From an uncultured Gammaproteobacteria bacterium (GTDB lineage Bacteria > Patescibacteriota > Microgenomatia > Levybacterales > GWA1-39-11), in contig CAYYLC010000003.1 in assembly GCA_964472415.1 (NCBI GenBank), positions 96,075 to 160,074 on the forward strand: 64,000 nucleotides of DNA, read 5' to 3'. This document shows, in pieces, positions 39,716-62,317 of the stretch. The position numbers were made by a program, and so were the translations under genes. How positions within the stretch are numbered: the stretch's first letter is position 1; the number at the start of each line of letters is the position of its first letter. The notes below the pieces were generated by a model that was not told the DNA's origin, searched no databases, and saw nothing but the letters and a program-made list of their open reading frames with translations.

Positions 39716-40828
39716 ATGAAATTTCTTAATAAAAAAATTATTGGTATCGGTTTGCTTGGAGTGTTTTTATTTGCAGGTGGAATTATTTATTTTTCTGAAA
39801 AATTAAATAACGTTGATAAAGTTCAAAATGAAAAAAAATCTTTTAGAGAAGATGTTCTCTCCTCCCCTACGCCATCTGATGTTGAGATACAAATACCCGA
39901 GCGTTTTATCATTCCCATGAGACATCATACTTTTCAAACGTTTAACAATTGTGGTCCAGCGACTCTTTCTATGGCGCTTTCTTATTGGGATGTGAATATT
40001 TCTCAGCACGAATTAGGGAATATTTTGAGGCCATATCAGGTGGCGAAAGGAGATAATGATGATAAATCTGTAACGTTAGAAGAGGTTGCACGTCAAGCAG
40101 AGGTGTATGGATTGCATGCCTATCTTAGGCCAAATGGTACTCTAGAAAAGATAGAAAAATTCATTTCTCAAGAAATTCCCGTAGTGACACGTACTCGGTT
40201 AGAGCCTCATGAGGATATTGGACATTACCGAATAATTCGGGGATATGATAGAAATGCCCATGAGATTATTCAGGACGATTCACTTCAGGGAAAAGATTTA
40301 CGGTATTCTTATGGGGAATTTATTACATTGTGGCAGCCGTTTAATTATGAATATCTACTTATCGTTCCAGAAGAAAAAAAGGAAATCGTTGAGAAAATTC
40401 TTGGTGAAGAGCTTAGTGAGAGGGCTGCGTGGGAGAATGCGCTTTCTCGTATTGAAGCTGAAATTCAAGAAAATTCAGATAATTGGCATTTGATTTTTGC
40501 AAAATCTCGGGTTCATTATTATCTTGAGGAATACGAGAAATCTATCGAAGAATTTGAAAAAGTAGAAGATAGGATTTCTTTCCGGACCCTCTGGTATCAA
40601 ATTGAGCCGATAAAGAGTTATTATGAATTGAGGCGATATGAGAAGGTGTTTCAGATTACTGATGCAATTCTCAATAATCAAAATCGTGCGTTTTCAGAGC
40701 TTTATTACATTCGCGGTCAAATGTATTTAGATCAGGGAGATACGGCCCTTGCTCGAGGTGAGTTTGAGAATGCAGTGCGGTATAAAAATAACTATACTCC
40801 CGCAATTGAGATGCTTAAAAATCTCTAA
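39716..40828 (+). CDS. membrane-anchored peptidase C39-like domain protein with C-terminal TPR repeats
   Basis: N-terminal TM; [17 protein letters not shown] (papain-like C39 Cys box) with later His (HYRIIRGYD); C-terminal TPR-like repeats ([27 protein letters not shown]). Confidence 0.6.
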
Positions 40829-42579
40829 AATTCGCTAATAATTTTTTCTTCAGAAATATGGAACCAGAAAAATCTATGACCAGTAAGAGTAAGGAAGTAT
40901 TTTTCGTCTGTAACTGTCGGAAATACGATTTCTCCATTCATCTCAAAGAGATTTAATCCTTTATATTCCGATAGATCTATTTCACAGTATTGCGCGCGTC
41001 GAGATAAATTATAGACACAGAGAATTGTGTCATCTTTATATTCTCGAATGAACGCAAAGATTGCTTTATTTCCGGTTTCAAGAGCTTGGAACGTTCCTCT
41101 TCCAAATGCCTTCGTCTTGCGCCTTACTTTTAGTCGAATCTTTACCCAATTGAGGAAAGAATATGGCATTTTCTCCTCTGTTCGTACATTGAGTGTTTCA
41201 TAATGATATGCTGGGTTTGTGATGGGTGGTAGATAGCAGTGTTCAGGGTCTGCTATAGAAAATCCAGCATTGAGATCGGAACTCCATTGCATAGGTGTTC
41301 TCACACCATTTCTATCTCCGAGAAATACGTTATCCCCCATTCCCAGCTCATCTCCGTAGTACATTACTGGACTTCCGGGAAGTGTAAGGAGCATTCCTGT
41401 GAGGAGCTCCATGGTAAGTTGGTCATTGTCTACGAGTGGCGCAAGTCTTCGTCTAATTCCTACATTTATTTTCATTTTCGGGTGTTTTGCGTATTCCATA
41501 TACATGAAGTCTCGCTCTTCATCTGTTACCATTTCAAGAGTTAGCTCGTCATGATTTCTTAAGAAAGTTGCCCATTGGGAATTTTTCGGAAGGTCTCTGG
41601 TCTGCTCCAGAATGTCTTCAATTGCAGTTTTGTCCTTTTTTGCAAGGGAAAGATAGATCCGTGGCATAAGCGGGAAATTAAATGCCATGTGGAACTCCGG
41701 GTTTTCGTTATCACCAAAGTATGGGATTGTTTCGGAGGGGATCTGGTTTGCTTCAGCAAGAAGAATTTTTCCAGGGTATTTTTCATCCATCATGCGTCTA
41801 ACGTCTTTGAAAAACTCGTGCGTTTCAGGAAGATTTTCTCCAGATGTCCCTTCTCGCTCAAATAAATACGGCACAGCATCACATCTCATTCCATCAAGTC
41901 CAAGGTCCATCCAGAAGCTAATAATCTTTTTCATTTCCTCGCGCACCTCTGGGTTGTCATAATTAAGATCTGGTTGATTGCTAAAAAATCTATGCCAGAA
42001 GTATTGTTTCGCTTCAGGATCCCAAGTCCAGTTAGAGGTCTCAGTGTCGGTGAAAATGATCCGAATATCTTTATATTTTTTATCATCATCTGCCCAAACA
42101 AACCAATTTCTCTTTGGACTATTTCTATCGGTACGTGCTTCCTTGAACCAGCTATGTTCATTTGATACGTGGTTAAATACCATATCGGAGATAATGCGGA
42201 GTCCTCTGTTGTGTGCTTCCTCTGTAAATTTTTTGAAGTCATCAAGTGTTCCTAGGTCAGGGTGAATATTATAAAAATCAGACACGTCGTATCCGTCGTC
42301 TTTAAGAGGTGAGGGGAAAAATGGGAGAAGCCAGATGCAGTCTATTCCCAGGCTCTGGAGATAGTCGAGTTTTTGAGTGAGTCCTGTAAAATCTCCTATT
42401 CCATCCCCATTGCTATCAAAAAATGTTCTCACATGTAGCTCATAAAAAACCGCGTCTTTATACCATAAGTCATCTTCTATATTTTTTTCTATAAGCTTTT
42501 CATCTAGCTCTCCGGGGGACATTCTAGACATACGAACACTATACCATCTCGAATGCGTTTCGTCATCATATAATTCCAA
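40825..42579 (-). CDS. treS: GH13 trehalose synthase / maltose alpha-D-glucosyltransferase (TreS-like)
   Basis: 584 aa; GH13 motifs [60 protein letters not shown]. Confidence 0.75.
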
Positions 42580-42655: not shown

Positions 42656-42726
42656 TGCCGAGTCGTCTAATGGTAGGACAACGGACTTTGGATCCGTTTA
42701 TTCTGGTTCGAATCCAGGCTCGGCAG
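42656..42726 (+). tRNA. tRNA-Gln (anticodon UUG)
   Basis: tgccgagtcgtctaatggtaggacaacggactttggatccgtttattctggttcgaatccaggctcggcag: U1-A72 first pair and 3-bp D-stem typical of bacterial tRNA-Gln; anticodon loop ctTTGga. Confidence 0.8.
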
Positions 42727-44409
42727 CATGATTCTACTGATAGGCTGATAATCGATCAAATTGCTTGTTATTACGGCCTTTTCTGTAGGTTCTAACGCAA
42801 ATATAATGTCCTCGATTTCTCTCTTTGCTTTCTCTATAAGAAAATATGGCCTATCTCCTGAGATTTGGAGGCTTCGATCTAGAATTGTTAGGTTCGAACC
42901 AAGTTTTGACAAAATATAGGTTTTGGTTCTAACGTCACCTGTTTCAAACTGATATTTGGCACTGCAAGCGAAGTTAAATGTCTCTTTTGACTGGAAATAC
43001 CACTCCTCTTGTTTCTTGTCCACTGAGTCAATTTGCTTCATGACATCTTTTCTCTCTTTTAGTAGTCTTTCTTCCTCATCATCGTAGAACTTCTGCATTT
43101 CAGTACCATTCGTGACGTTTTCTCTTGAGATTCTAAGTCTCGTAAGCCGCGCAAGCGCTTTATCACAGTTTTCCATCTGTTTTACAAGGTTTTCTTTAAT
43201 ACTTCTAATGTCTGTTTCTTCTTTATCATTTAGTTCATTTAAGTGATCTATGCACCAATCGCGGAACTCTTCCGTTAATTCAAATTTGTTAAGCTCTGTT
43301 TTGATCTTATCTTCAAGATTTTTCAGTGTCACACTACCTTGAGAACAAGTCTTAGTAACTCTTTTTGTGCAGTGGTAGAACACATAATGCAGCAACTTTG
43401 GATTTTTCATTTCCTCAATTAAAGTGCCACATTTAGGACAAGCATTTGTCAGTTTTCCTTTATGGAACTTTTGCTTACAAGTTGAGCAGATTATTTGCAT
43501 CTTTTCCTCAGCAGTCACACTTCCGTCACATTCACCACATTTGAGAACATGCTTATATGCGAATTCATGTCGTGCCATACGTGGCTTGCCTTTGCGTCCT
43601 AAACGCACCTGTAGTGTGTCAAATTCATCTTCAGTGAGCATTGGCTTATGTGTTCCAAATACTTCTCCTTCAGATCGCACCATGAGGCCATAATAGTAAC
43701 TATCTGTGAGGATTCTGTACCATCCAGATTTTGCCATTGGCAAACCGCCTTTACTTCCTCTTGCTCTTGATCTAAATTTCCATTTGTTATTTAGAACATC
43801 TAATGCTTCCATTGGAGTATAAGTTCCATCAATAATCAATCTCATTGCATTTTGCAGTAATGGAAATCTTTCCTCATCCACGCCTATTTTCTTTTCCTTG
43901 GTGGCTTCATCATAGTAGTTGAAGTATCCTGGCTTGGCAGGGCCGATCCATTTTTTAAGGTTGTGGAATATGTAATGGTTACCACGCTTCACATTCTTAC
44001 TCAGATTCCTGGAGTATTGGTTTGCCATTCCAAAATGAATTTGCAGAATAAGGTGATCTGAATCCTGTGTGTATCTTTCACCGTCAGTACTTCGAATTTC
44101 TTGAAGCTTTCCATCTTGTAACAGCTGGAGAAGATGTCCACCTTCCATTGGATTGCGGCACAGTCTGTCTGGCTTCCAAGTAAGAATTGCATTTATCTTA
44201 CGAGCCTCAATGAGTTCAATCATTTTTGTGAACTCTGGCCTATTGTTTGGCTTATATGCAGATTTTGACTCTTGGAAGATATGAGTAACTGTCAAATTGT
44301 CTCTATCAACTGCTTTTTTACACTCCTCATTCTGCTCGTTAATAGACATCGCCTGTTTCTCTTTTGACTCTGATGACTTTCTTGAATATTGTGCGTATAC
44401 TAGTTTCAT
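42667..44409 (-). CDS. large serine recombinase (resolvase/invertase N-domain, recombinase domain, zinc ribbon)
   Basis: 580 aa; N-terminal catalytic region VYAQYSRKSSESKEKQ...IDRLCR; CGECDGS...CSTC and CPKCG zinc ribbon; coiled-coil C-terminus. The 3' end of the ORF runs into tRNA-Gln on the opposite strand. Confidence 0.8.
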   Translation of the reverse strand: MKLVYAQYSRKSSESKEKQAMSINEQNEECKKAVDRDNLTVTHIFQESKSAYKPNNRPEFTKMIELIEARKINAILTWKPDRLCRNPMEGGHLLQLLQDGKLQEIRSTDGERYTQDSDHLILQIHFGMANQYSRNLSKNVKRGNHYIFHNLKKWIGPAKPGYFNYYDEATKEKKIGVDEERFPLLQNAMRLIIDGTYTPMEALDVLNNKWKFRSRARGSKGGLPMAKSGWYRILTDSYYYGLMVRSEGEVFGTHKPMLTEDEFDTLQVRLGRKGKPRMARHEFAYKHVLKCGECDGSVTAEEKMQIICSTCKQKFHKGKLTNACPKCGTLIEEMKNPKLLHYVFYHCTKRVTKTCSQGSVTLKNLEDKIKTELNKFELTEEFRDWCIDHLNELNDKEETDIRSIKENLVKQMENCDKALARLTRLRISRENVTNGTEMQKFYDDEEERLLKERKDVMKQIDSVDKKQEEWYFQSKETFNFACSAKYQFETGDVRTKTYILSKLGSNLTILDRSLQISGDRPYFLIEKAKREIEDIIFALEPTEKAVITSNLIDYQPISRIMLPSLDSNQNKRIQSPLSYH

Positions 44410-46210: not shown

Positions 46211-46234
46211 TTTTAATCAGGAATGATGGAATGT
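46211..46234 (+). repeat. island motif copy ttttaatcaggaatgatggaatgt
   Basis: Its ATGATGG provides the ATG of the 46223 Xis-like ORF. Confidence 0.5.
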
Positions 46235-46480
46235 TTAATCTCTGGTATTTTGATGTTCAATTTAGTACAATTAAGCTCAACTAATATGAACGCAGAGCTT
46301 GAAGAGCTTATATCTATCCAAGAGGCAGCAAGGATTTTGAATGTCAACGTTCAAACTCTGAGGAGATGGGACAGAACAGGTGTTCTCAAAGCAGTTCGTG
46401 TAGGTACTCGGAAAGGTGTTGGTGACAGACGATACCGCAAGAGTGATATTGAGGCTTATTTGTCACGAAATAAAAAATAA
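46223..46480 (+). CDS. excisionase/MerR-like HTH DNA-binding protein
   Basis: ISIQEAARILNVNVQTLRRWDRTGVLKAVRVGTRKGVGDRRYRKSDIEAYL is a helix-turn-helix of the Xis/MerR (HTH_17) type. Start could be the internal MNAELEE at 46289. Confidence 0.6.
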   Translation: MMECLISGILMFNLVQLSSTNMNAELEELISIQEAARILNVNVQTLRRWDRTGVLKAVRVGTRKGVGDRRYRKSDIEAYLSRNKK

Positions 46481-46504
46481 GCACCAAAGAGAATTAAGAA
46501 AATT

Positions 46505-47413
46505 ATGGCATTATTTACAATTACTAATAATAAGGCATCGAAAATTGCACCGATTAAAGTTGGGCTGGAGAAAGATGTACAAAAGATATTCGAAGAGAAT
46601 CTAAATGAGATTTTGAATATAACTTTTCTTGCCACTGAATACTCTACAAGTTTTGGAGGGAGAATTGATTCTCTCGGAATTGATAATAATGGTGCACCAG
46701 TCATTATTGAATATAAACGTAACCATAATGACAATGTAATCAACCAAGGCCTTTCATATCTTCGATGGTTACTAGATCATAAAGCAGATTTTGATGTATT
46801 AGCACATAAAGTAAATCCAGAAATTGAGATTGACTGGAATTCTCCACGAGTCATTTGTGTGGCTGAGAGTTATAACAAATTTGATCTGGATACTGTTGAA
46901 CTTCTTCCAATTAACATTGAACTTTTGAGATATAAAATTTATCAAAACAATCTCCTACTAGTAGAGCCAGAAACACAACAAAAAGTACGTATCTCAACCT
47001 CAAAAATTTTCAATAAAGAAAAACAAGAGAAATCAATTGGAGAAAAAGTCACTTACAAATTAGAGGATCATCTATCTGGTATCAGTTCGAAAGCAAAGGA
47101 AATATTTGAAGAGGTAAATGAAAAAATTGTTGCACTTGATGAGTCAATTATTGTTGAGCCAAAAGCGAAATATATTGCCTATAAATTGACAACAAATTTT
47201 GTTGATATTGTTGTAAAGCAATACGGCCTCAAAATTTTTCTAAATGTTCCAAGTGGTGAACTGAATGATCCTCATGGTATGGCACGTGATCTCACAAAGC
47301 CAAAACCTATTGGACACTGGGGTAATGGAGACTACGAAGTAAAAATTGAAACACAAGAGGATATAGAAAAAGTATTTGATCTAATCAAGCAAAGTTATTC
47401 ATTCAATAAATAA
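46505..47413 (+). CDS. PD-(D/E)xK-type nuclease (restriction-endonuclease-like N-domain with DUF5655-like C-terminal region), candidate R subunit
   Basis: GRIDSLGIDNNGAPVIIEYKR is a D...(D/E)xK core. The stop at 47413 lies 3 bp from the methyltransferase start (translational coupling). Confidence 0.5.
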   Translation: MALFTITNNKASKIAPIKVGLEKDVQKIFEENLNEILNITFLATEYSTSFGGRIDSLGIDNNGAPVIIEYKRNHNDNVINQGLSYLRWLLDHKADFDVLAHKVNPEIEIDWNSPRVICVAESYNKFDLDTVELLPINIELLRYKIYQNNLLLVEPETQQKVRISTSKIFNKEKQEKSIGEKVTYKLEDHLSGISSKAKEIFEEVNEKIVALDESIIVEPKAKYIAYKLTTNFVDIVVKQYGLKIFLNVPSGELNDPHGMARDLTKPKPIGHWGNGDYEVKIETQEDIEKVFDLIKQSYSFNK

Positions 47414-47415
47414 AT

Positions 47416-48504
47416 ATGAGTTCAAAATCATTAAATTCAAATTTACACAAAGCAAGTAAAGCAAAAAAGGATGAGTTTTATACTCAACTTACAGATATTG
47501 AAAAAGAGCTTCGACACTATAAAGATCAATTCAAAGGCAAAGTTGTTTACTGCAACTGTGATGATCCTTTCGAAAGTAACTTCTTCAAATACTTCGCTTC
47601 CAATTTCAACGCACTAGGACTTAAAAAACTAATAACTACTAGTTTTTCAGGCTCACCAATCACTGGAAAGCAACTTTCTCTATTGGACATGGAAGGACTA
47701 AAACCTAAAGGAAAACAGCCATTCAAGATTGAGATTACTAATGTACCAGACAAGAATACTGATGGTGCTATCGACTTAACAGATGTGGAATGGCTATTAA
47801 AACAAGACACGAATGTATCCACTCCTCTTAAAGAAAGCGGAGACTTTAGAAGTGAAGAATGTATAGACTTACTCAAGCAATCAGATATTGTGGTAACTAA
47901 TCCACCATTCTCACTCTTTCGAGAATATATTGCTCAACTTATTGAGTATGAAAAAAAGTTTTTGATTATCGGAAATTTGAATGGAATAAGCTATCAAGAA
48001 ATATTTAAGTTAATCCAAGGCAATAGGCTTTGGCTAGGTTACAATAATGGACACAAAACTTACTTAGTTCCAGATTATTATGAGCAAAAGAATATATATG
48101 TCGGTGAGGATGGTAAAAAGTATGCCAAAATGGGAAATACAGGATGGTTTACAAATCTAGATATTAGCAAACGTCACGAAATGCTTACTCTTTATAAAAG
48201 ATATAATCCGCAAGACTTTCCACAGTACGACAACTATGACGCAATTGAAGTATCAAAAGTATTAGAAATTCCGTTAGATTATAATGGCATTATGGGTGTG
48301 CCAGTAACATTTCTTGACAAATATAATCCAGAACAATTTGAAATATTAGGGATTACTGATAGAAATCCTAAGAGCAAATATAGAACAAAAATGTATACCA
48401 AGGCTGACTCACCAATGTATAACGACTTAAACAGACGTGCAGCAATTAAATTTGATGGTAAATTAAAACCTACATATGCTCGATTGCTGATAAAGAAAAA
48501 ATGA
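47416..48504 (+). CDS. N6-adenine (or N4-cytosine) DNA methyltransferase
   Basis: DEFYTQL N-terminal motif, catalytic motif IV VVTNPPFS (NPPF), candidate AdoMet-binding region KVVYCNCDDPFES. Confidence 0.7.
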   Translation: MSSKSLNSNLHKASKAKKDEFYTQLTDIEKELRHYKDQFKGKVVYCNCDDPFESNFFKYFASNFNALGLKKLITTSFSGSPITGKQLSLLDMEGLKPKGKQPFKIEITNVPDKNTDGAIDLTDVEWLLKQDTNVSTPLKESGDFRSEECIDLLKQSDIVVTNPPFSLFREYIAQLIEYEKKFLIIGNLNGISYQEIFKLIQGNRLWLGYNNGHKTYLVPDYYEQKNIYVGEDGKKYAKMGNTGWFTNLDISKRHEMLTLYKRYNPQDFPQYDNYDAIEVSKVLEIPLDYNGIMGVPVTFLDKYNPEQFEILGITDRNPKSKYRTKMYTKADSPMYNDLNRRAAIKFDGKLKPTYARLLIKKK

Positions 48505-48505
48505 T

Positions 48506-49609
48506 ATGAAAATTGAATTACACAAAATAAAAGTTCGTGAAGTGGTTGAAGGATACAAAGACAATGCTGAAGAAGGTGTTGTAGGATATGGTGGCGAACT
48601 TGATATTCGCCCTAAGTATCAGCGTGAATTCGTTTACAAAGACGCTCAGCGTGATGCAGTGATAGATACTGTCAAGAATGGCTTTCCTCTTAATGTCATG
48701 TATTGGGTAGTGCGTGAAGATGGTGGATATGAAGTCCTTGATGGACAGCAACGCACAATCTCGCTTGCACAATATGTAAATGGAGACTTTTCCATAGACT
48801 TTAATGGTAGGCTGGCAATGTTTCATAACTTAACTCCAGAAGAACAAAACCAGATTTTAGATTATGAGTTGATGATCTACTTTTGTGAAGGTACAGACAA
48901 AGAACGCCTTGATTGGTTTAGGATCATTAACATTGCTGGTGAGAAATTAACAGATCAAGAATTGAGAAATGCAGTATATACAGGGCCATGGCTTTCTGAC
49001 GCAAAACTTAAATTCAGTAAATCAAATTGCGTAGCATATCTTCTTTCAAATGACGGAGGTGCGTTACTCTCTGGATCACCAATAAGACAGGAATATTTAG
49101 AAACAGTACTTTCGTGGATCAATAATGGTGCAATTGAGGATTATATGGCACGTCATCAACATGATGAAAATGCCGATGAGCTATGGAATTATTTTCAAGA
49201 AGTAATCGCTTGGGTGAGAAAAACATTCTCAAACTACAGAAGAGAGATGGCAAGCGTGAATTGGGGTGAACTATACAATCAATTCAAGGATCATGAACTA
49301 AATCCTGAAAAACTGGAAGCTGAAATAAAAGTACTCATGCAGGATGAAGATGTTACAAAAAAGAGCGGTATTTATCCTTACGTTTTGACTCGTCTTGAAA
49401 AATATCTATCTATTAGAGCTTTTACTGACAAAATGAGACGAGAGGCATATGAGAGGCAAAATGGCGTATGTCCATTCTGCAAAAATAAATTTGAAATTGA
49501 AGAAATGGAAGCAGATCATATTACTCCATGGCATGAAGGTGGAAAAACAACTGCTGACAACTGTCAAATGCTTTGCAAACAAGATAATAGAACAAAATCT
49601 GGTGTGTAA
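48506..49609 (+). CDS. DUF262 (ParB/GmrS-like NTPase) - HNH endonuclease fusion, GmrSD-like candidate type IV or modification-dependent nuclease
   Basis: N-terminal DUF262 with DGQQRT motif; C-terminal HNH CPFCKNKFEIEEMEADHITPWHEGGKTTADNCQMLCKQDN. Start 2 bp after the methyltransferase stop. Confidence 0.65.
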   Translation: MKIELHKIKVREVVEGYKDNAEEGVVGYGGELDIRPKYQREFVYKDAQRDAVIDTVKNGFPLNVMYWVVREDGGYEVLDGQQRTISLAQYVNGDFSIDFNGRLAMFHNLTPEEQNQILDYELMIYFCEGTDKERLDWFRIINIAGEKLTDQELRNAVYTGPWLSDAKLKFSKSNCVAYLLSNDGGALLSGSPIRQEYLETVLSWINNGAIEDYMARHQHDENADELWNYFQEVIAWVRKTFSNYRREMASVNWGELYNQFKDHELNPEKLEAEIKVLMQDEDVTKKSGIYPYVLTRLEKYLSIRAFTDKMRREAYERQNGVCPFCKNKFEIEEMEADHITPWHEGGKTTADNCQMLCKQDNRTKSGV

Positions 49610-49656
49610 GTTGTATTGAATTAAAAATATGCTAAATCTGCCTATTATTACGAATA

Positions 49657-51273
49657 ATGAAAATATCGAAAATTATTGTTCAGAACTATAGATCAATTGA
49701 AAGGGTTGAGGTTAATCCAAGCAAATTTTCCATCTTTATCGGACAAAACAATCACGGCAAAACAAATTTCTTTGAGGCAATTGAATGGTTCTACAATTCC
49801 AAGTCATCAAATGAAGAAGAATATTGTAGAAAAGATTCAGACAATAAAATTCAAGTTGAGATAACTTTTGATGATGTTCTAGAAACAGACATTGAAAAAC
49901 TTACTTCTGATACCAATAAAACTAAAATTAGAAATATTTTGAATGGCTCTACTTCATTCTCTGTAATCAAATCAAGTACAGATCATAAAAGAAAATACTT
50001 TGTTAATGGTGAAGATAAAGGTAATCCTCAAGGACTAGACACTGCCATCAATGAATTTTTACCTAAGCTCGAATATGTTAATACTTCAATAAGATTAAAT
50101 GACGTTTCAAAATACAAAGACAGAAATCCTATTGGAACAATGCTTTCTGGCGTTCTCACTGCCATTATTGAAACATCACAAGACTACATTGAATTTAAGC
50201 AAACCTTCACAAAGTTATTTGACAATGCAGACTCAGAAGTTAGAAAAGAGCTTGATAAGTTAGGCGGACAAGTTGAAGTATATCTTCAGAAACAATTTCC
50301 AGGTGATACTAAGGTAAAGTTTGGTGTTAATCCACCTCATTTTACTGACTTATTAAAAAGTTTTGATACATCAATAAATGATGGAATTGAAACAACTGCT
50401 GAGGCAAAAGGTGATGGTATGCAAAGAGCAATAATGCTTTCAATTATCCAAGCATTTGCTGACTATCGTAAGAAGCAAATTGGTGGTGGAACTTTTCTGT
50501 TTATGATTGATGAAGCGGAATTGCACCTTCATCCAACTGCACAACGTTCTCTAAAGAATGCCTTATTAGACATATGTCAAACAGATCAAGTACTGGTAAA
50601 TACTCACTCCTCTGTTTTGGTTGTTGATAACAATGAACTTCAGAAGATTTTCAAGGTTGAAAAAACTGATGGAGTAACAAATATAGATGAGGTTGATGAT
50701 CTTGAGAAGATAAACATTATCTTCGAATTACTTGGTGGAAGTCCTTCCGATCTATTATTGCCAAGGAACTTTCTAATAGTAGAAGGAAAATGTGAATACG
50801 AATTCATCAAAATCATTATTGAACGTTATTATCGTGACAAATTTGATGGAATTAAGGTTTTATTTGCTGGAGGTGACTTGGATGAGCAAGAATCATCATT
50901 GCTCGCAGTCCACAAACTCTTTAATCCATTAGCTGGATCAGACAATCCAATTTATAAGGAAAGAGCTATTGTTTTAATAGACAAGCAAAATGGAGATCAG
51001 CAACATAAATTTGAAGCTTTTAAGCAAGGTTATCCTTATTTATTCAGCAATAATCATGTTTTTGAATTAACTACTACAACTCTGGAAGAATATTATCCAG
51101 ATGCATATAAGAAGAATGCTGCTGAGATCGCTCAACTGCAAGCAGACAGAAAAAAAGTTGAATATGCTAAAGAAGTTGCGTCAAAGATTACACAAGAGGA
51201 ATTTGAAAATGATATGCAGATAATATTCCAAGCACTTACTAAGTGTAATGAATGCGCTTTTAATCCGAAATAA
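49657..51273 (+). CDS. OLD-family protein: ABC/AAA_15-type ATPase with C-terminal TOPRIM-like nuclease region
   Basis: IVQNYRSIE...FIGQNNHGKTNFFEAIEWF (GxNxxGKT Walker A of the OLD/AAA_15 type), Q-loop region, Walker B/D-loop FLFMIDEAELHLHP, then FLIVEGKCEYEFI...VLIDKQNGD consistent with the TOPRIM conserved Glu and DxD. Confidence 0.7.
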   Translation: MKISKIIVQNYRSIERVEVNPSKFSIFIGQNNHGKTNFFEAIEWFYNSKSSNEEEYCRKDSDNKIQVEITFDDVLETDIEKLTSDTNKTKIRNILNGSTSFSVIKSSTDHKRKYFVNGEDKGNPQGLDTAINEFLPKLEYVNTSIRLNDVSKYKDRNPIGTMLSGVLTAIIETSQDYIEFKQTFTKLFDNADSEVRKELDKLGGQVEVYLQKQFPGDTKVKFGVNPPHFTDLLKSFDTSINDGIETTAEAKGDGMQRAIMLSIIQAFADYRKKQIGGGTFLFMIDEAELHLHPTAQRSLKNALLDICQTDQVLVNTHSSVLVVDNNELQKIFKVEKTDGVTNIDEVDDLEKINIIFELLGGSPSDLLLPRNFLIVEGKCEYEFIKIIIERYYRDKFDGIKVLFAGGDLDEQESSLLAVHKLFNPLAGSDNPIYKERAIVLIDKQNGDQQHKFEAFKQGYPYLFSNNHVFELTTTTLEEYYPDAYKKNAAEIAQLQADRKKVEYAKEVASKITQEEFENDMQIIFQALTKCNECAFNPK

Positions 51274-51276
51274 ATT

Positions 51277-52032
51277 ATGTCTCAATACTACAATCCAAAT
51301 CGAAAAAGAAACCTGTACGATCCTCACTCACCTGAGTTATTCCGCTTGAGTCGAGGAAAGATTGATAACTTCATCAATTGTCCACGGTGTTTTTATTTGG
51401 ACAGGCGTCTTGGTGTTGGACAGCCGCCAGGTTATCCATTTTCGCTCAATTCTGCAGTTGATAAGCTCTTGAAGAAAGAATTTGATGTTCATAGAGTAAA
51501 TGGCTCAAAACATCCACTGTGCGATAAATATGGTGTTGATGCAGTTCCGCTATCACACGATAAGATTGATGAATGGCGTGACTCTTTAAGAGGTGGAATT
51601 ACAGTTCACATTGACAGCACGAATGTTGTCATTACTGGTGGCGTGGATGATATTTGGATTTCACCAGAAGGTGAATACATTATTGTTGACTACAAGGCCA
51701 CATCTAAAGATGGTGAAGTATCACTGGATGCTGACTGGCAAATTGGATATAAGCGGCAAATGGAAATATATCAATGGCTTTTTAGGAAAAATGGCTTCAA
51801 AGTGGCTGATACTGGATATTTTGTCTACTGTAATGGAAATACTGACAAAGAAGCATTTGATGGAATGCTTGAATTTGAGATCAAACTCATTCCATACACT
51901 GGTAACACAGATTGGGTAGAAAAGACGATCCTGGACGCAATCAGGTGCCTCCAGAGCGATGTTTTACCTGAGCCTGGACAGGATTGTGACTTTTGTAAAT
52001 ACAGACAAGCTGTGAAGGAATTTGAAGATTAA
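51277..52032 (+). CDS. Cas4/RecB-like PD-(D/E)xK nuclease with four Cys (CxxC at each end)
   Basis: NCPRCFYLD (N-terminal CxxC), GGVDDIW...EGEYIIVDYKAT (D...E...DxK), KRQMEIYQWL (QxxxY motif of the RecB nuclease family), C-terminal CDFCKY. Start 3 bp after the OLD-like gene stop. Confidence 0.65.
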   Translation: MSQYYNPNRKRNLYDPHSPELFRLSRGKIDNFINCPRCFYLDRRLGVGQPPGYPFSLNSAVDKLLKKEFDVHRVNGSKHPLCDKYGVDAVPLSHDKIDEWRDSLRGGITVHIDSTNVVITGGVDDIWISPEGEYIIVDYKATSKDGEVSLDADWQIGYKRQMEIYQWLFRKNGFKVADTGYFVYCNGNTDKEAFDGMLEFEIKLIPYTGNTDWVEKTILDAIRCLQSDVLPEPGQDCDFCKYRQAVKEFED

Positions 52033-52396: not shown

Positions 52397-52420
52397 TTTT
52401 AATCAGAAATGATGAAATTG
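52397..52420 (+). repeat. island motif copy ttttaatcagaaatgatgaaattg
   Basis: 33 bp upstream of the CPBP protease start. Confidence 0.5.
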
Positions 52421-53802: not shown

Positions 53803-53816
53803 TAAACCAAGTCGCT

Positions 53817-53912
53817 TTTAATCAGCAGTGATGGAATTCATCAAAAACTAGGCTGAAAAGCAGGTTGGAATGGTTGTTTTGTATTGATAAAATAGGTTCT
53901 AACAGCGTCTAC
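53817..53912 (+). repeat. ~95-bp direct repeat, left copy (ttttaatcagcagtgatggaattcatc ... aatggttgttttgtattgataaaataggttctaacagcgtct)
   Basis: Contains the island motif plus a second conserved block; a similar copy lies at 56008-56092 on the other side of the surface-protein gene. Confidence 0.6.
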
Positions 53913-53974
53913 TAGACACAGCTGAGTAAGCTTTCAAGCCTTGGTTACATTTGGCTAATCTAAAGAGGCATACT

Positions 53975-55924
53975 TTAACATCCTACCCTTAGTACTTGCC
54001 CTATGTTAAGAAGCGTAGAGCTTAGGTTATTTTTCTGCATTAAATCTGAGTATTTGGTACCTGATTCTAGGTTTTGGGAGGCGATAGTCCACAGATTGTC
54101 TCCTGGCTGCACCACATAATCCTGACATTCTTTTACAGACACTGTCGTTGCTTCCAGATCACCATTTCCACTGCCTGCATTAGTTACTCGTCTAGGAAAT
54201 ACAGACAAAATTCTCGATACAAAGTTTTTGTAATACGATGTTGCTTTTGATGACGAGTTACTCGTTGTTGCTGTCATTGTATTTCCCCACTCTCCAGGCA
54301 TGCAGCCGTTGCCACCTCTGACTACGAATGAATACTTAGAATTAGGAGATAAGGCATTAACAGTATACGAAAGCACTCCATTTGATACTCCTGTTTCAAA
54401 CTCTACTCCATACATATTAGTACTTTCTCCATTCCCATAAGCGATGAAGTACTTATGTGCATCTGATATAGGTGCAAAGTAAAGAGTGGCTTGTGTATTA
54501 TTCGTATCTATTTGGAAAAGATTAGGTGTGTTCAGTGGCCTAGTATCTGCGCACGTTGGAGCTGATGGTGAGGAAATGTCAGGTGACGAATTAGTGTTGT
54601 TTGATTGTAGTATAGGTTTGGGTGTAGGTGTACTGGTAGGTTCAGGTGTGGGAGTATTTGTCGGAGTTAGCGTTGGAGATGGAGTACCGGTTGGCGTTGG
54701 CGTCGGAGAATTTGTCGGTGTTGGGGTAGGTGTATTGGTTGGAGTTGGTGTGGGAGTAGTCTCAGGAGCGTCCTCTTCCAATGCAAATTTCAGATTGTTG
54801 TTGGTATTATCATAGTAGCTGATTCTGGCAAACCCGTCACTGCCCACCGCCAGAGAAGCGGGCAACCCTACATCTCCGTCTGCATCAACAATGCTGGTTT
54901 CTTTCTGTGTACAGTCATCATTAGCACATCTAATAAACTTGAGATCAGAGTTAGTATGATCTCGATAAGCTATCCTTGCATAGCCATCATCTCCTACTGC
55001 AATGGACGTATGTAGCCCTACAAATCCGTCTGAATCAAGGGTTGCAATATTACTTTCTGAACAATCAGCATTGGTGCATTGTGCAAATTTGAGATCGCCA
55101 TTTGTCCCATCATAGTAGCTGATTTTAGCAAAACCGTCACTGCCCATGGCAAGGGAAAGATGCGATCCTACGCCTCCTGAGTCAACAGTGGAGACATTTT
55201 TATTTGAACAATCGGCATTGGTGCATTGTAAAAATTTGAAATCATCAGTTATCTCATCGTAGTAGCTGATTCTGGCAAAACCGTCACTGTTCAAGGCAAG
55301 GGAGGAATAATATGGGTACGCACCTGAGTCAAGGGTTGCAACGTTACTTTCTGAACAATCGGCATTGGTGCACTGAGCAAACATCAATAGAGTATTCATG
55401 AATTCAAAATACAGAATCCGCGCAAAGCCGTCACTGCCCATGGCAATGGAAGGGTACCACTCCGTATTACGTTCAGGATCTATGGCGGTGACAGACTTTG
55501 ATGAACAATCGGCATTAGTACACGCGATTAAATACATCTCTTCAAATATAGATTTAGAATAGACGATCCGAGCAAATCCATCGTTACCCATGGCGAGGGA
55601 GTTATTTTGGACCTGTAATAACCCGCCCGTGTCAAACCACGATAATCCTGTGGCAACCGTGGTGATATTTTTTTCTGAACAATCGGCATTGGTGCACTGA
55701 ACAAATTTCAGCTCAGCAGTAACAAAGTCAGTATAGACGATCCGAGCAAATCCATCGTTACCCATGGCGAGGGAAATATCTTCTCCTATATCGCTAACCG
55801 AGTCAACAGCTTCAATTTTCCAGGCACTGGCGGCATTGACCGGCTGCGTAGGTAGAAACGAAGTACTCAAAAGTGAGATGAGAAAGAATGCTATGGTGAA
55901 AATGCTGAATAATTTTTTTTGCAT
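53975..55924 (-). CDS. secreted surface protein: signal peptide, seven ~47-aa CTNADCS repeats, Pro/Thr-rich linker, beta-rich domain, C-terminal LysM
   Basis: MQKKLFSIFTIAFFLISLLS signal. Seven repeats of consensus LAMGxDGFARIxYxDxxxxDLKFxQCTNADCSxxNxxTxDSxG. The 54590-54780 DNA is a PT-repeat (TPTPTPTNTPTPTPTNSPTPTPTG...). C-terminal YVVQPGDNLWTIASQ...LNIGQVLRV is LysM. Confidence 0.7.
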   Translation of the reverse strand: MQKKLFSIFTIAFFLISLLSTSFLPTQPVNAASAWKIEAVDSVSDIGEDISLAMGNDGFARIVYTDFVTAELKFVQCTNADCSEKNITTVATGLSWFDTGGLLQVQNNSLAMGNDGFARIVYSKSIFEEMYLIACTNADCSSKSVTAIDPERNTEWYPSIAMGSDGFARILYFEFMNTLLMFAQCTNADCSESNVATLDSGAYPYYSSLALNSDGFARISYYDEITDDFKFLQCTNADCSNKNVSTVDSGGVGSHLSLAMGSDGFAKISYYDGTNGDLKFAQCTNADCSESNIATLDSDGFVGLHTSIAVGDDGYARIAYRDHTNSDLKFIRCANDDCTQKETSIVDADGDVGLPASLAVGSDGFARISYYDNTNNNLKFALEEDAPETTPTPTPTNTPTPTPTNSPTPTPTGTPSPTLTPTNTPTPEPTSTPTPKPILQSNNTNSSPDISSPSAPTCADTRPLNTPNLFQIDTNNTQATLYFAPISDAHKYFIAYGNGESTNMYGVEFETGVSNGVLSYTVNALSPNSKYSFVVRGGNGCMPGEWGNTMTATTSNSSSKATSYYKNFVSRILSVFPRRVTNAGSGNGDLEATTVSVKECQDYVVQPGDNLWTIASQNLESGTKYSDLMQKNNLSSTLLNIGQVLRVGC

Positions 55925-56007: not shown

Positions 56008-56092
56008 ACATCATCAGGAACGATGGAAACCAAAAGAATACTCACAAAAATGGTTGTTTCATATTGATAAAATAGGTTCTAACACTGTCTGC
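56008..56092 (+). repeat. ~90-bp direct repeat, right copy (catcaggaacgatggaaacc ... aatggttgtttcatattgataaaataggttctaacactgtct)
   Basis: About 75-80 percent identical to 53817-53912; the block ATTGATAAAATAGGTTCTAACA is identical in both. Confidence 0.6.
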
Positions 56093-56276
56093 CAAGCACA
56101 ACAAAGCCCATCAACACCGCTGCTGTTTGTAATTTACGATACTGAAAAACTTCTGGAAATAGAATAGAATCATTCCATGACTACTTTTTCCTATTTATTA
56201 TAGGTAGCTTATTGTTACTCGTGTTTTTAATCTATCTATCATATTTCTAAATAGATAAATTAAGGAGGTGATACAT

Positions 56277-57661: not shown

Positions 57662-58729
57662 GTGATGCCTGATTCTCATTTATTGTTGAAATCTATAAAG
57701 GACGCATTTCTCATAGATTTGTCTGCTTCTGCAAAAGGAGAAAAAACCTCTCTTGTATTTGAAAAAACTATTTTTCCTGATTCTCAAACTAGAAAAGAAG
57801 AAGCTATTCAGGTGATGGTAATTGGTGGGACAAACTTCTCTGAAGCATTAGTAGAAAAGGCTGAGGATATGAGAGTACGAGAGTTTAGTGAGCAGAAAGA
57901 ATTTCAGATGTTTAGAAGTGCAGATGATATATTTTCTTTAATTCTAGAAAACCTTCGACCAGATATTTCTCACCTTGCAATAAATTTTGCCTATCCTATG
58001 AAAAACGTTATGCGGAAAGGTAGAATTGATGGGATTCTTACAAAAGAAGTGAAGGGGCATGCGTTTAAAGATGCTTTGGGAAAACCTCTAGGTGCACAGA
58101 TAGAAAATTTTATTTTTCAAAAAACGCAGCGAGTCATAAAGATTGCGGTAGCAAATGACGCATTGTGCCTTCTTCTTTCTGGTCTGTCTTCTGCACCTCG
58201 TGATCAATTAGTAGGAGTAGTTGTGGGTACTGGTTATAATATGGGATTTTTTCTTGATAAGGACACAATGGTGAATTTAGAAGCAGGACGATTTGATCAG
58301 TTTCCTGCAAGTGAGTCGGGAAAAATGATAATGCGTGATATCCATTCTAGTGTATTAAGAAAGTTTGAGATGGAAGTTTCCGGTGCATATCTATATCGTC
58401 ATTTTAATTATTTAGTACTCAATAATGCGGTTGCTCATAAAAAAATTAGTTCTACTTATGAGCTTTTCCAAATAGCATTTGGAGAGAGAGATGCAGTTCA
58501 GGAAATCGCCTACACACTGATAAAGCGTTCTGCTGGATTTGTAGCAGCTCAAATTTCTGGAATGGCAGAGTTTAAGAATTCTGACATAGCAGTAATATTT
58601 GAAGGGAGTCTTCTTACGCAGCAATATGTAAATATGATGAGTGAGGTTATCCCTGAATTAACAAAATTCACAGTTCATTTTTACAAAATAAAAGATAGTT
58701 CAATTGTTGGCGGTGCCAATCTTCTCTAG
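57662..58729 (+). CDS. hexokinase-family sugar kinase (eukaryotic-type hexokinase fold)
   Basis: MVIGGTNFSEALV (as in hexokinase LAxDLGGTNFRV) and VVGTGYNMGFF (as in GTGTNACY). Confidence 0.5.
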   Translation: MMPDSHLLLKSIKDAFLIDLSASAKGEKTSLVFEKTIFPDSQTRKEEAIQVMVIGGTNFSEALVEKAEDMRVREFSEQKEFQMFRSADDIFSLILENLRPDISHLAINFAYPMKNVMRKGRIDGILTKEVKGHAFKDALGKPLGAQIENFIFQKTQRVIKIAVANDALCLLLSGLSSAPRDQLVGVVVGTGYNMGFFLDKDTMVNLEAGRFDQFPASESGKMIMRDIHSSVLRKFEMEVSGAYLYRHFNYLVLNNAVAHKKISSTYELFQIAFGERDAVQEIAYTLIKRSAGFVAAQISGMAEFKNSDIAVIFEGSLLTQQYVNMMSEVIPELTKFTVHFYKIKDSSIVGGANLL

Positions 58730-59043: not shown

Positions 59044-60648
59044 GTGGTACAGTTTATGGAGTCTGATTGGAAACTAAATTCAGTTATTTATCAAATTTAC
59101 CCCAGAACCTTTCAAGATAGTAATAATGATGGGATTGGGGATCTGCCGGGAATAATTTCTCGCCTCGATTATATAAAAAATTTGGGAGTGACTGCGATAT
59201 GGCTTTCCCCAATTTATCGCTCTCCACAGATAGACTTTGGATATGATGTTTCTGATTATAAAGATATTGACCCGATCTTTGGAACGCTTGCAGATTTTGA
59301 ACGTTTAGTACAGGAGTGTAAAGAGCGAAAACTCCAGATTTTAATGGACTATATTCCAAATCATACGTCATCTCAGCATCCCTGGTTTCAAGAATCTCGG
59401 AGTTCAAAAAATAATCTTAAGAGTGACTGGTATATCTGGGGAGATGCAGGAAGAAATGGTGAGGCGCCTAACAATTGGCTTTCAGTGTTTGGGGGATCTG
59501 CTTGGGAATTTGATGAAGCTCGTCAGCAGTATTATTTGCATACATTTGATAAATCACAACCAGATCTAAACTGGCGAAATCCGGATGTGCAAGAGGAAAT
59601 GTTTGATGTCCTCAGGTTTTGGATGGATAAAGGTGTTGATGGATTTCGAGTTGATGTGCCCTACCATATCTTTAAAGATCCATTACTTCGTGACGAATCT
59701 CCGAATCCCGACTATGCGGAGGGGGTGCATAATTTCTTTAATAGTTTGCACCATGTTCACACAGCGTGGCTTCCAGAGTCTATGGAGATGATGAGGCAAT
59801 TTGCGGAAGTTTTGCAAGAATATAAAAATAAATTTATGGTAGCAGAGGCTTGGGGAGAGATCTCTGACTTGATAAAGTTATCCAACACAGTAGGATGGAG
59901 ATATTTTGTGCCATTTAATTTCTCACTGATCACACTCCCCTGGCGCGCTGATGTGCATAAAGAATTTATTGATATGTACGATTCTGAATTGGGAGGTGGA
60001 TATCTTCCTTGTTATGTTTTAGGGAATCATGATACGTCGCGTATTGCCTCTAGAGTCGGGCAAAAGCAAGCGCGTGTAGGAGCGCTTCTTCAGTTGACAT
60101 TACGGGGGCTTCCATTTATTTATAATGGTGAGGAATTGGGGATGATAGACGGAGAAATTTCAAGAGAAATGATAAAGGACATTTTTGAAATAAATTCTCC
60201 CGGACTTGGTTTAGGGCGCGATCCGCAAAGAACTCCTATGCAGTGGGATGATACAAATAATGCCGGTTTTTCTACCCATATTCCATGGCTTCCTGTGGGG
60301 AGTAGTTATAGGTTCATCAATGTAAAAACTCAGGAAGAGGATCCCCATTCTATGCTCTCTCTTTATAAGCTTCTTATACATATAAGGAACCAGCATGGAG
60401 CTTTACGTGAGGGAAACTATGTAAAAATTCCACAACCACAGAAAGATATTTTTGCATTTATTCGTGAAAAAGATGCAAGCAGAGTTTTAGTGCTTGCGAA
60501 CTTTTCGAAGAAAAATATATCCATTTCTCTTGATTTTCATAAAGCACGAATGATTTGCAATACATCTTTGACTGGATTGCAGGAATCGGTTGACTTAAAT
60601 AATTTTATTGTAAAAGCGGATGAGGGGTATGTTTTTGTTCTTGAATAA
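59044..60648 (+). CDS. GH13 alpha-glucosidase (oligo-1,6-glucosidase / trehalose-6-phosphate hydrolase-like)
   Basis: VIYQIYPRTFQDSNNDGIGDLPGI, DYIPNHTS, GFRVDV, EAW, GNHD GH13 regions; 534 aa. Likely start at MESDWK. Confidence 0.8.
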   Translation: MVQFMESDWKLNSVIYQIYPRTFQDSNNDGIGDLPGIISRLDYIKNLGVTAIWLSPIYRSPQIDFGYDVSDYKDIDPIFGTLADFERLVQECKERKLQILMDYIPNHTSSQHPWFQESRSSKNNLKSDWYIWGDAGRNGEAPNNWLSVFGGSAWEFDEARQQYYLHTFDKSQPDLNWRNPDVQEEMFDVLRFWMDKGVDGFRVDVPYHIFKDPLLRDESPNPDYAEGVHNFFNSLHHVHTAWLPESMEMMRQFAEVLQEYKNKFMVAEAWGEISDLIKLSNTVGWRYFVPFNFSLITLPWRADVHKEFIDMYDSELGGGYLPCYVLGNHDTSRIASRVGQKQARVGALLQLTLRGLPFIYNGEELGMIDGEISREMIKDIFEINSPGLGLGRDPQRTPMQWDDTNNAGFSTHIPWLPVGSSYRFINVKTQEEDPHSMLSLYKLLIHIRNQHGALREGNYVKIPQPQKDIFAFIREKDASRVLVLANFSKKNISISLDFHKARMICNTSLTGLQESVDLNNFIVKADEGYVFVLE

Positions 60649-60682: not shown

Positions 60683-62317
60683 CTACTTGCTTTCAAACCA
60701 CCGGAAGCCGTATCCGGAAAGCGTTAAATTTCCATTTTTTCTTATCTTCGAATACTTTTTATTACTAAAGAATTCTTTCATTTCTAGCTTTTCGATCTCT
60801 GGAATAGTAACTTTGGCCTCATTTTTCGAAAAATTTGTAATCATAATAGTTGTATGTCCTTCCCATACGTATGAAATAATAAATATGCTTTCATGATGAC
60901 TATTGATAAGCGCTGATTCTCCATACCCTATTTCTTTGTGTTTTTTGACTGTTTTTATGAGTTGCTTGATATGGTTTAAAAGGGAGGAGTCATTTTTTAA
61001 TTGTTTTTCTACATTAACTTTCTGATACCTATAATCACCTTCAGAAATAATTCCTCTTATGAGAGTGCTTGGGTGAGAATCAGAGAAGTTCGCATTTATA
61101 CTATCATTCCATTGCATAGGCGTTCTTACTGAAACTCTTTCTGGAAGTCGCAAGTCGTCACCCATTCCTATTTCGTCTCCGTACAGTATCATTTGTGCCC
61201 CAGGAAGAGAAAATAATAAGCTATATGCCATTTTAAGCCTATTTAAATTTCCCTCAAACATAGGTGCAAGTCTTCGTCTGATTCCGCGATTGTATACAAT
61301 CATTCCATCTGTCGGGGCAAAAGTCCCGAAAACCCTTTTCTGCTCCCTTTTCGATAGTTGCTCAATGTTTAACTCATCGTGATTTCTCAAAAAATCTACC
61401 CACTGTGCACCTGATGGAGGAGTTGGTAATTTTTTCATGAAATCATACAATGGTTTCGTTTTTTTGTCTGCAAATGAAAGGAATATATAGCGATTCAATA
61501 GGAAGTTATACATAAGATCCATTCGTTTCCCATTCCCGAAAAACAAGGGAACTTTATCACTTGTTACGTCAGCTTCTCCGAGCAGAATTGCATCAGGATT
61601 TTTTTCCTTAATATGCTTGTTCCACCGATCCATCACCAAATCTGCATCAGGCACTTCTGTTCCCGGAAGTCCTTTCCTCTCAAACATAAACGTTGCAGCA
61701 TCTATGCGGAATCCCGCAATGCCAAATTCCATCCAGAAATCCATAATTTTCTCAATTTCATGTTGTACCTTGGGATTTGCGATATTAAGATCTGGTTGGA
61801 AGTGATAAAAACTATGATGATAGAATAGTTTTGATTCTCCATTAAACTGCCAAACGCCTGCCTCTATGCTCGGAAATGCACTCTCCATTTGGATGCCATC
61901 AGGAATTTTATCTGTCCAGACATAGTAGTTGCGGTATTTAGAGTTTGGATTTTTACTTGCCTCTTCAAACCATGGATGTTGATCCGATGTGTGATGAACA
62001 ACTAAATCAATAATTACTTTTATCCCAAATCTTTCAGCCTCTTTTACAAATGTTTTAAACTCTCCGAGTGTTCCGAGCCTTGGGTCAATATTGTAATAAT
62101 CAGTTACGTCGTATCCATTATCTCGGCCACCCGAGGGATGAAATGGAAGCAGCCAGATACAGTCAATTCCGAGATTTTTTAAGTAGGGAAGTTTCATGGT
62201 GAGCCCTACGAAGTCTCCTATTCCATCACTATTTCCATCCTTAAATACTTCTACGATTACTGCGTAGAACACAGCGTTTTGGTACCATTGGTGCTCTAGA
62301 GAGTTATTATCCGACAT
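60683..62317 (-). CDS. GH13 enzyme, TreS-like / amylosucrase-like paralog
   Basis: 544 aa; [56 protein letters not shown]; parallels the 40825-42579 protein. Confidence 0.75.
   Translation of the reverse strand: MSDNNSLEHQWYQNAVFYAVIVEVFKDGNSDGIGDFVGLTMKLPYLKNLGIDCIWLLPFHPSGGRDNGYDVTDYYNIDPRLGTLGEFKTFVKEAERFGIKVIIDLVVHHTSDQHPWFEEASKNPNSKYRNYYVWTDKIPDGIQMESAFPSIEAGVWQFNGESKLFYHHSFYHFQPDLNIANPKVQHEIEKIMDFWMEFGIAGFRIDAATFMFERKGLPGTEVPDADLVMDRWNKHIKEKNPDAILLGEADVTSDKVPLFFGNGKRMDLMYNFLLNRYIFLSFADKKTKPLYDFMKKLPTPPSGAQWVDFLRNHDELNIEQLSKREQKRVFGTFAPTDGMIVYNRGIRRRLAPMFEGNLNRLKMAYSLLFSLPGAQMILYGDEIGMGDDLRLPERVSVRTPMQWNDSINANFSDSHPSTLIRGIISEGDYRYQKVNVEKQLKNDSSLLNHIKQLIKTVKKHKEIGYGESALINSHHESIFIISYVWEGHTTIMITNFSKNEAKVTIPEIEKLEMKEFFSNKKYSKIRKNGNLTLSGYGFRWFESK

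Follow-up and report, generated by a model that had tools for sequence, protein, structure and literature searches.

The window analysed here is a 64,000-nucleotide stretch of contig CAYYLC010000003.1, and the gene of interest lies on its minus strand at 53975-55924, where the list of open reading frames (ORFs) gives a single ORF of 649 amino acids (aa) plus a stop codon. The product is predicted to be a large surface protein in which a signal peptide, a seven-bladed beta-propeller, a Pro/Thr-rich linker, a fibronectin type III (FN3) sandwich and a LysM domain follow one another. An identical protein is called on three public contigs, the longest of which falls in the 0.2-1 Mb class; the contig examined is 192 kb long. 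The gene is monocistronic, and a tblastn search of the window for a paralogue of the propeller protein found none; the 649-aa ORF at 24615-26564 is PheT. The features of the gene, in window positions, are as follows.

53975-55924, minus strand: whole coding sequence, 649 aa (ORF list)
55823-55924, minus strand: putative Sec-type signal peptide, aa 1-31/34 (inspection of the translation)
54773-55825, minus strand: predicted seven-bladed beta-propeller, aa 34-384 (motif positions, AlphaFold2, Foldseek, Cys co-occurrence)
54614-54772, minus strand: Pro/Thr-rich linker, aa 385-437 (translation, Tandem Repeats Finder, repeat family D4)
54257-54559, minus strand: predicted FN3-type beta-sandwich, about aa 456-556 (sub-cutoff Pfam fn3 match, AlphaFold2, Foldseek, conserved columns)
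53978-54127, minus strand: C-terminal LysM, aa 600-649, between C600 and C649 (Pfam PF01476, PDB matches, model topology)

Repeats, predicted folds and cysteine pairs

The blade repeats are real and lie far beyond chance. The motif DG[FY]A[RK]I occurs seven times (aa 57, 115, 165, 214, 263, 313 and 363) and C[TA]N[AD]DC[ST] six times (aa 77, 135, 185, 234, 283 and 333), five of the latter being exact CTNADCS and one CANDDCT. Blades start at aa 51, 109, 159, 208, 257, 307 and 357, which gives a repeat unit of 49-50 aa, with blade 1 reaching 58 aa because of a 16-aa insertion; the unit of about 47 aa put forward in an earlier, sequence-only reading of this DNA was too short. Pairwise identity between blades averages 51% at the protein level (range 32-76%), and in the DNA the repeat appears with a 147-nucleotide (nt) period and 77% matches (repeat families D1-D3). 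The same reading had assigned a strictly conserved Cys pair to each of seven repeats. Seven repeats are indeed present, but the pair is confined to six of them (C77/82, C135/140, C185/190, C234/239, C283/288 and C333/338), and the seventh stops after its third strand (...NLKFALEED) without one.

The propeller was modelled by AlphaFold2 (AF2) from alignment A1, which covers the propeller region with 61 homologues. The model contains 28 strands, seven times four, at a predicted local distance difference test score (pLDDT) of 94.1 and a predicted template-modelling score (pTM) of 0.93, and supports with high confidence a single closed seven-bladed propeller; the best Foldseek matches are seven-bladed propellers as well. 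The two folds that had been suggested from the repeats alone thus part ways here, the propeller being borne out and the disulfide-stabilised beta-solenoid ruled out by the model. Blade 7 is modelled, again with high confidence, with a 3+1 'velcro' closure: its outermost strand comes from the N-terminus (aa 34-41, KIEAVDS), whose sequence resembles strand four of the other blades (...ATLDS...). Because the N-terminus provides this fourth strand, the seventh repeat has neither a C-D hairpin nor a Cys pair. In the other six blades the first Cys ends strand C and the second follows five residues later, just ahead of strand D.

The N-terminus, MQKKLFSIFTIAFFLISLLSTSFLPTQPVNA followed by ASA and WK, reads as a Sec signal peptide: inspection by eye finds a Lys-rich n-region, a hydrophobic core and two cleavage motifs of the AXA type (VNA and ASA), which is the charged, hydrophobic and AXA layout of such a peptide. 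Reading the translation by eye showed no lipobox Cys in the signal peptide and no covalent anchor, LPXTG or lipobox, in the protein. Behind the propeller, the proposed repeat linker was recovered at aa 385-437, and its DNA is an imperfect 24-nt repeat at 54615-54758 (family D4), of which Tandem Repeats Finder reports 54666-54758 (period 24, 71% matches). It is likely to be an extended stalk and is possibly O-glycosylated. An ORF antisense to this tract (54486-54815, plus strand, 109 aa, Gly/Val-rich) was considered and rejected as a gene, being a reverse reading of the repetitive ACN/CCN codons.

For the C-terminal 210 aa an AF2 model was built from alignment A3 (16 sequences; overall pLDDT 82), and in it about 20 disordered residues separate an FN3-type sandwich from a following LysM of beta-alpha-alpha-beta topology. 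We therefore assign the region after the linker, with high confidence in the model, to an FN3 sandwich and then a LysM, which agrees with the beta-rich domain and C-terminal LysM expected earlier. The FN3 part is modelled at a pLDDT of about 90-95 and matches many FN3 domains in Foldseek (TMt 0.76-0.82); the Pfam fn3 model (PF00041, aa 472-550) scores 19.6 bits against a cutoff of 25 (E 1.1e-3) and so stays below it, with several homologues passing. This region holds the invariant motif RGGNGCMPGxWGN and, likely, a disulfide between C458 and C541. The LysM is matched by PF01476 at aa 603-647 (47.1 bits against a cutoff of 20.9, E 2.3e-12) and by the PDB sequences 4uz2 and 4xcm, and its model has strands at model positions 162-165 and 205-208 with two helices between them, at a pLDDT above 90.

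All 16 Cys of the protein stand in local pairs, namely the six CxxxxC pairs, C458/C541 in the FN3 domain and C600/C649 around the LysM. The six CxxxxC pairs are interpreted as disulfide staples of the C-D hairpins because the two Cys co-occur in blades of the family, because their i/i+5 spacing bridges the hairpin, because the protein carries an export signal and because every one of its Cys has a local partner.

Family membership and the architecture of relatives

Nothing in Pfam-A or NCBIfam covers the propeller repeats at E<=10, including NHL, YVTN, WD40, Kelch, PQQ, SBBP and BNR; NHL and YVTN were the two well-known families named beforehand as those that the repeats might turn out to match. 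Likewise, phmmer and hmmsearch runs against all PDB chains with the protein, a family profile and a single-blade profile found no sequence relative of the repeats, the matches being LysM entries and designed TIM barrels only. Designed TIM barrels (sTIM11 and similar) that surfaced in the PDB searches were rejected as periodicity artefacts made of several stretches of about 6-8 bits, and Pfam matches to Ogr_Delta, IBR, PyrI_C, DUF1936 and DUF7253 were rejected because each is a sum of 10-25-residue stretches, owed to the ISYYD strand or to the Cys motif, in which no single domain is significant.

The family itself is large. A word-indexed search returned at least 212 homologues, the closest at 49-57% identity, and an exhaustive profile search covering 1.84 billion metagenome representatives (clusters at 50% identity) recovered 37,539 clusters at E<=1e-3, of which 15,284 reach E<=1e-30. 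Proteins of 6,000-7,000 aa with multiple propellers are among them, and members carry source names that are either 'hypothetical' or evident mis-annotations. The family is not specific to the Candidate Phyla Radiation (CPR), for its named members belong to Campbellbacteria and other Patescibacteria but also to Chloroflexota, Anaerolineae, WOR-3, Acidobacteria and Nitrospiria. Literature searches on the motif strings and on CPR propellers found no description of it. The suggestion of a new repeat family therefore holds in that the repeats are uncurated and unnamed, and falls short in that so many clusters are already public and a faint kinship to BNR_4 and Asp-box propellers can be made out; what we have is an uncurated, very large existing family of known fold.

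A seven-blade hidden Markov model recovers 1,364 blades in 258 collected proteins, with a modal spacing of 50-51 aa. Among 945 full-length blades from 220 proteins, 718 have both Cys, 213 have neither and 14 have a single one. Alignment A5, built from 74 diverse blades, resolves two blade types with a common core, S-[LI]-A-x(3-4)-G-x-P/A-x-I-S-Y-Y-D-x-T-N-x-D-L-K-x-A … T-V-D-S-x-G-x-V-G-x-Y-x-S, that differ in the C-D hairpin: type one reads A-x-C-x(4)-C, and type two is shorter and ends in G-x-x-W. Blades that lack the Cys often carry such a Gly-x-x-Trp, Asp-box-like hairpin instead. In Asp-box propellers the motif SxDxGxTW is found at this same C-D (strand 3-4) hairpin site (PMC9218822). The protein studied here has no SxDxGxTW anywhere, the hairpin of its six blades being C-[TA]-N-[AD]-D-C-[ST], and it gives no match to BNR_4 (PF15892) at E<=10; relatives rich in the Trp type reach a whole-sequence score for that model solely by summing short sub-threshold matches around profile positions 220-270, in its last blade. 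Judged by these sequence features the family is probably tied to the Asp-box/sialidase supercluster at a distance, the signal being faint and one of kinship, not membership. That a disulfide staple and an Asp-box-like hairpin can stand in for each other illustrates how propeller blades evolve. A curated model covering both CxxxxC and G-x-x-W blades would provide domain assignments for tens of thousands of metagenomic proteins, the function of the domain being putative.

In relatives the propeller is fused to N_methyl prepilin N-termini, collagen, PKD, SLH, PG_binding_1, LysM, type IX secretion system (T9SS) sorting domains, a sortase domain and PGF-type archaeal anchors. Because these partners are all extracellular, the propeller is best understood as an extracellular binding head. 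The full layout of propeller, FN3 and LysM recurs in P0010, P0058, P0110 and the partial P0122, and in these same-layout relatives identity to our protein is 51-76% for the FN3 domain, 42-57% for the LysM and 32-43% for the propeller. The FN3-LysM module, with its RGGNGCMPGxWGN motif and conserved Cys, also follows other heads in proteins of Levybacteria and Woesebacteria. As it is better conserved than the propeller and carries other heads, we regard it as a conserved anchor for exchangeable, faster-evolving heads. Among the proteins in which the module stands behind a non-propeller head (P0121, P0123, P0125, P0127 and P0128), some show an Asp-box-like S-x-D-x-G-x-S-W.

A different setting is seen in P0004, which has a class III (prepilin) leader, …RAFTLTELLV…, and is encoded in a type IV pilus locus beside PilC (T2SSF), a pilin and a Kelch-type propeller protein. 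On the CPR-like contig concerned (L011 1326-9786 / L012), PilC, the Kelch-type propeller, P0004, two unknown proteins and a 995-aa fn3/Laminin_G_3 protein stand in a row, and the locus looks like a battery of candidate pilus-associated adhesins.

The variable region around the gene

The window is chromosomal, carrying gyrB, pilB, recG, a PBP1-type gene, pheT and a tRNA cluster, and comes from a tiny bacterium of groundwater type. Its CPR (Levybacteria-like) origin, which as CPR had been supposed from the letters, is supported both by the best named homologues of the C-terminal module, which are Levybacteria and Woesebacteria, and by a 23-nt string from the gene flanks, TATTGATAAAATAGGTTCTAACA. 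Of the 185,579 species genomes in the GTDB set just two contain this string without a mismatch, both of them Levybacteria and one with a 762-kb chromosome.

About 9.6 kb from the propeller gene lies a gene for a large serine recombinase (580 aa, 42667-44409, minus strand), whose 3' end overlaps tRNA-Gln(ttg) at 42656-42727. After the recombinase come genes for helix-turn-helix (HTH) proteins, a defence cluster, a CAAX protease, DUF4395, the propeller gene, a cupin, OmdA, DUF488 and a hexokinase. In the relatives L005-L007 the left-hand amylase is 81-85% identical and tRNA-Gln is kept. Homology is lost roughly 11 nt beyond the tRNA's 3' end, and none of the three shows any of the genes that lie to the right in the window. 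Because homology to the relatives ends there, the strain-variable region begins at tRNA-Gln, and by this comparison of sequences the site appears to mark an insertion hot spot. The window contains no att-type repeat of the tRNA-Gln 3' end and no right-hand boundary, in that synteny with L005-L007 does not resume within it and the post-tRNA genes of L005 are not in it. Homologues that share the architecture have ordinary chromosomal neighbours, namely ATP synthase or glycolytic genes. The earlier statement that the gene is carried on a mobile element is supported in part, by a recombinase abutting a tRNA and a synteny break at that tRNA. With neither an att repeat nor a right boundary found in the window, and with homologues in ordinary contexts, we consider location on a mobile element plausible, though not demonstrated.

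Several other features of this region were recorded. The defence-type cluster occupies 46286-52032 at a GC content of 33-36% and comprises HTH_17 (46286-46480), DUF5655, an EcoRI-family adenine methyltransferase, a GmrSD_N-HNH nuclease, an AAA_15/AAA_21 ATPase and a PD-(D/E)XK nuclease. Three alpha-amylase-family genes and a hexokinase gene flank the variable region (40825-42579, 59044-60648, 60683-62317 and 57662-58729), an arrangement suggesting that the insertion may have divided a cluster for using starch or glycogen. Beside the tRNA cluster, 39716-40828 encodes a C39-like/AvrRpt2-like papain-fold peptidase with a tetratricopeptide (TPR) repeat, 68% identical in L005.

A composite direct repeat brackets the propeller gene. 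It opens with a 16-nt motif (ATCAGnAnYGATGGAA), after which come a promoter-like element (TTGGAA-17-TGaTAAAAT) and a leader that is conserved. The two copies are the following.

53815-53920, plus strand: downstream flanking repeat, with the 16/23-nt motif (ATCAGCAGTGATGGAA), the promoter-like element and AGGTTCTAACAGCGTC; points antisense into the 3' end of the gene
56008-56100, plus strand: upstream flanking repeat, second copy (85% identity across 52 nt), some 185 nt ahead of the cupin gene (56268)

The 16-nt motif, which is the core of the 23-nt repeat CTTTTAATCAGnAnTGATGGAAT, occurs four times in the window against 0.12 expected by chance (46216-46231, 52402-52417, 53821-53836 and 56013-56028, all on the plus strand). 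All copies fall within the variable region, where they bracket three segments: the defence module, the CAAX protease with DUF4395, and the propeller gene. An operator, a recombination site and the remnant of a duplication are all conceivable as explanations of the motif. The promoter-like element with AGGTTCTAACAGCGTC is found at 53865-53920 and 56045-56100 and, exactly, in two Levybacteria genomes (L003 1207-1229 and L004 4813-4835), and the L004 copy lies just upstream of a tRNA-Ser-like sequence.

Proposed function and comparison with known systems

Over the whole domain, Foldseek ranks lectins of Photorhabdus first (PLL, PLL2-5 and PHL; E 3.6e-17 to 1e-14, template-modelling (TM) score 0.72-0.79, 12-15% identity). 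The next tier contains GH145 BT3686 (E 4e-12, TM 0.69) and its relatives, the CV39L lectin, a PL42 lyase, ulvan lyases and sialidases; these structural neighbours all bind or act on carbohydrates. A search of viral folds returned only generic propeller domains of uncharacterised phage proteins. High symmetry between blades, here averaging the 51% given above, is a trait of multivalent propeller lectins such as PHL. By analogy with these lectins we favour, with moderate confidence, a LysM-anchored, multivalent, lectin-like adhesin with presumptive sugar binding.

In this adhesin model the protein would be exported via Sec and would fold under oxidising conditions with eight disulfides, six stapling hairpins and one each locking the FN3 and LysM domains. 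The LysM would bind a glycan containing N-acetylglucosamine (GlcNAc) in the cell's own peptidoglycan, giving a non-covalent hold on the wall; the organism encodes a class A penicillin-binding protein (22276-24570), from which it follows that peptidoglycan is made. The FN3 domain and the stalk of roughly 55 aa would space the propeller off the wall, and the propeller would act as a lectin-like head whose seven blades, being nearly identical, would present recurring binding sites to a glycan or to some other surface polymer of repetitive structure. The outcome would be multivalent adhesion to a partner cell, a host cell or a substrate. That the attachment is to a host we infer, as we do the disulfides, the orientation of the anchor and the binding of glycan.

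Several points weigh against the adhesin model. The blades carry no conserved Trp, and the Trp pairs of the PLL/PHL fucose sites are absent. No PLL/PHL entry, and so no PLL W-motif, is reached at E<=10 among all PDB sequences from the protein, the family profile or the blade profile. Because the Trp pairs and a sequence match are both missing, the analogy with lectins is one of fold and architecture. Identity to the lectins in the structural alignments is as low as stated, and compact seven-bladed propellers resemble one another for geometric reasons. No ligand is predictable for the propeller. No conserved neighbour genes point to a pathway, the episymbiotic lifestyle of the organism is assumed, and the LysM could equally bind the wall of another cell.

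Rival readings were weighed against the same evidence. The propeller might bind proteins instead of glycans, the whole being a structural or protein-binding component of the envelope such as a wall scaffold or an S-layer-like coat. Propellers are common platforms for protein interaction, the family has its giant multi-propeller and SLH-bearing forms, and family-wide conservation of the D-to-A loop (DSxGxVGxYxS) suggests structural rather than ligand-specific pressure. We nevertheless think this role unlikely: a monocistronic gene with no partner gene nearby, present in only some relatives and in varied contexts, is unlike a core envelope component, and the nearest structures are lectins and carbohydrate enzymes, not propellers of the WD40 type.

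Given the second Foldseek tier, with its GH145 member BT3686, PL42 rhamnose-glucuronate lyase, ulvan lyases and sialidases, and given the summed weak matches of relatives to the last blade of BNR_4, the protein could also be a LysM-tethered carbohydrate-active enzyme of the GH145, PL42, PL24/25 or sialidase type that cuts a polymer of the wall or capsule, either the producer's or a host's. Lectin matches outscore enzyme matches, however, and the blades are so nearly identical that none stands out as a single active site; the whole protein has merely 4 His and, as said, no BNR_4 match, and fusions to pilins and collagen stalks suit binding heads better. An enzyme is accordingly quite improbable.

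The orientation might also be reversed. Since LysM binds any GlcNAc-containing glycan, the protein may be released or act independently of pili, with the LysM on the peptidoglycan or chitin of a host or prey and the propeller binding the producer or serving as an effector head. This would suit the absence of LPXTG and lipobox, and the CPR bacteria that have been studied live attached to other cells (PMC11623550). A single C-terminal LysM behind a stalk is, on the other side, the usual layout of a self-wall anchor in monoderm-like bacteria, and an FN3-LysM module carrying several different heads is what a generic anchor would be expected to do, so we rate reversal as decidedly improbable. That the CxxxxC pairs are metal-binding or redox sites and not disulfides is very hard to credit, for the weak zinc-knuckle matches that suggest it (Ogr_Delta, IBR, PyrI_C) are 10-20-residue stretches with no significant single domain, each site has two Cys on one hairpin, the protein is predicted to be exported, each Cys has its local partner, and replacement of the pair by a Gly-x-x-Trp hairpin in many relatives argues for a structural role.

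Returning to the lectin-like adhesin, a wider proposal can be offered tentatively. CxxxxC propellers may be widespread but undefined extracellular glycan-recognition heads that in CPR bacteria are swapped between pilins and FN3-LysM anchors as a module for recognising a host or partner, the present gene being one of the three segments bracketed by the 16-nt motif in a recombinase-associated variable region. If this were true, adhesin specificity would be exchanged as a cassette. Little is understood of the way in which ultrasmall CPR bacteria recognise their partner cells and stay attached to them, and a pilus-borne heptabladed propeller has provided a genetic pointer (PMC11623550). A distinct, uncurated propeller family found on pilins or on a LysM anchor in different CPR genomes is a concrete candidate for binding studies.

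Compared with known systems, the propeller resembles PLL/PHL (PDB 5c9l, 6rg2, 5mxe) in being compact, seven-bladed and four-stranded, with about 350 aa, repeats of about 48-50 aa and strong internal symmetry. PHL is a seven-bladed 'bangle' lectin with up to 12 Trp-built sugar sites between its blades and multivalent binding (PMC5584973); with no conserved Trp in the blades, the binding chemistry of our protein must therefore differ. The available part of the same description gives PHL one inter-subunit disulfide and mentions no hairpin CxxxxC staple (PMC5584973). The PLL lectins, moreover, are soluble oligomers that lack a signal peptide, a stalk and a LysM. GH145 and PL42 enzymes (PDB 5mul, 5mum, 7esk) and BNR_4 share the seven blades and are carbohydrate-active (TM 0.65-0.71). 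Unlike these and the Asp-box propellers, the present protein has near-identical blades and no evident single active site, and a disulfide staple replaces the hairpin motif. Its C-terminal beta-alpha-alpha-beta domain is like that of other LysM surface proteins (PF01476, for example PDB 4uz2), whereas the single LysM between two Cys, placed behind an FN3 module seen so far mostly in Microgenomates-type CPR proteins, sets it apart from them.

A functional parallel can be drawn with PilX2 of TM7x, a CPR bacterium of the Saccharibacteria; PilX2 is a minor type IV pilin with a C-terminal heptabladed propeller reported to resemble PLL-type lectins (PMC11623550). PilX2 is needed for efficient host binding, which its deletion halves, and its propeller is described as RCC1 repeats (PMC11623550). 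These repeats belong to another sequence family, and the protein studied here would be anchored by a LysM and not through a pilin helix, so PilX2 is treated as an analogue and homology to the propeller family is not claimed. The likeness is that of CPR surface proteins bearing a heptabladed propeller, and it extends to members of the present family, P0004 and P0002, which share with PilX2 the layout of pilin plus propeller.

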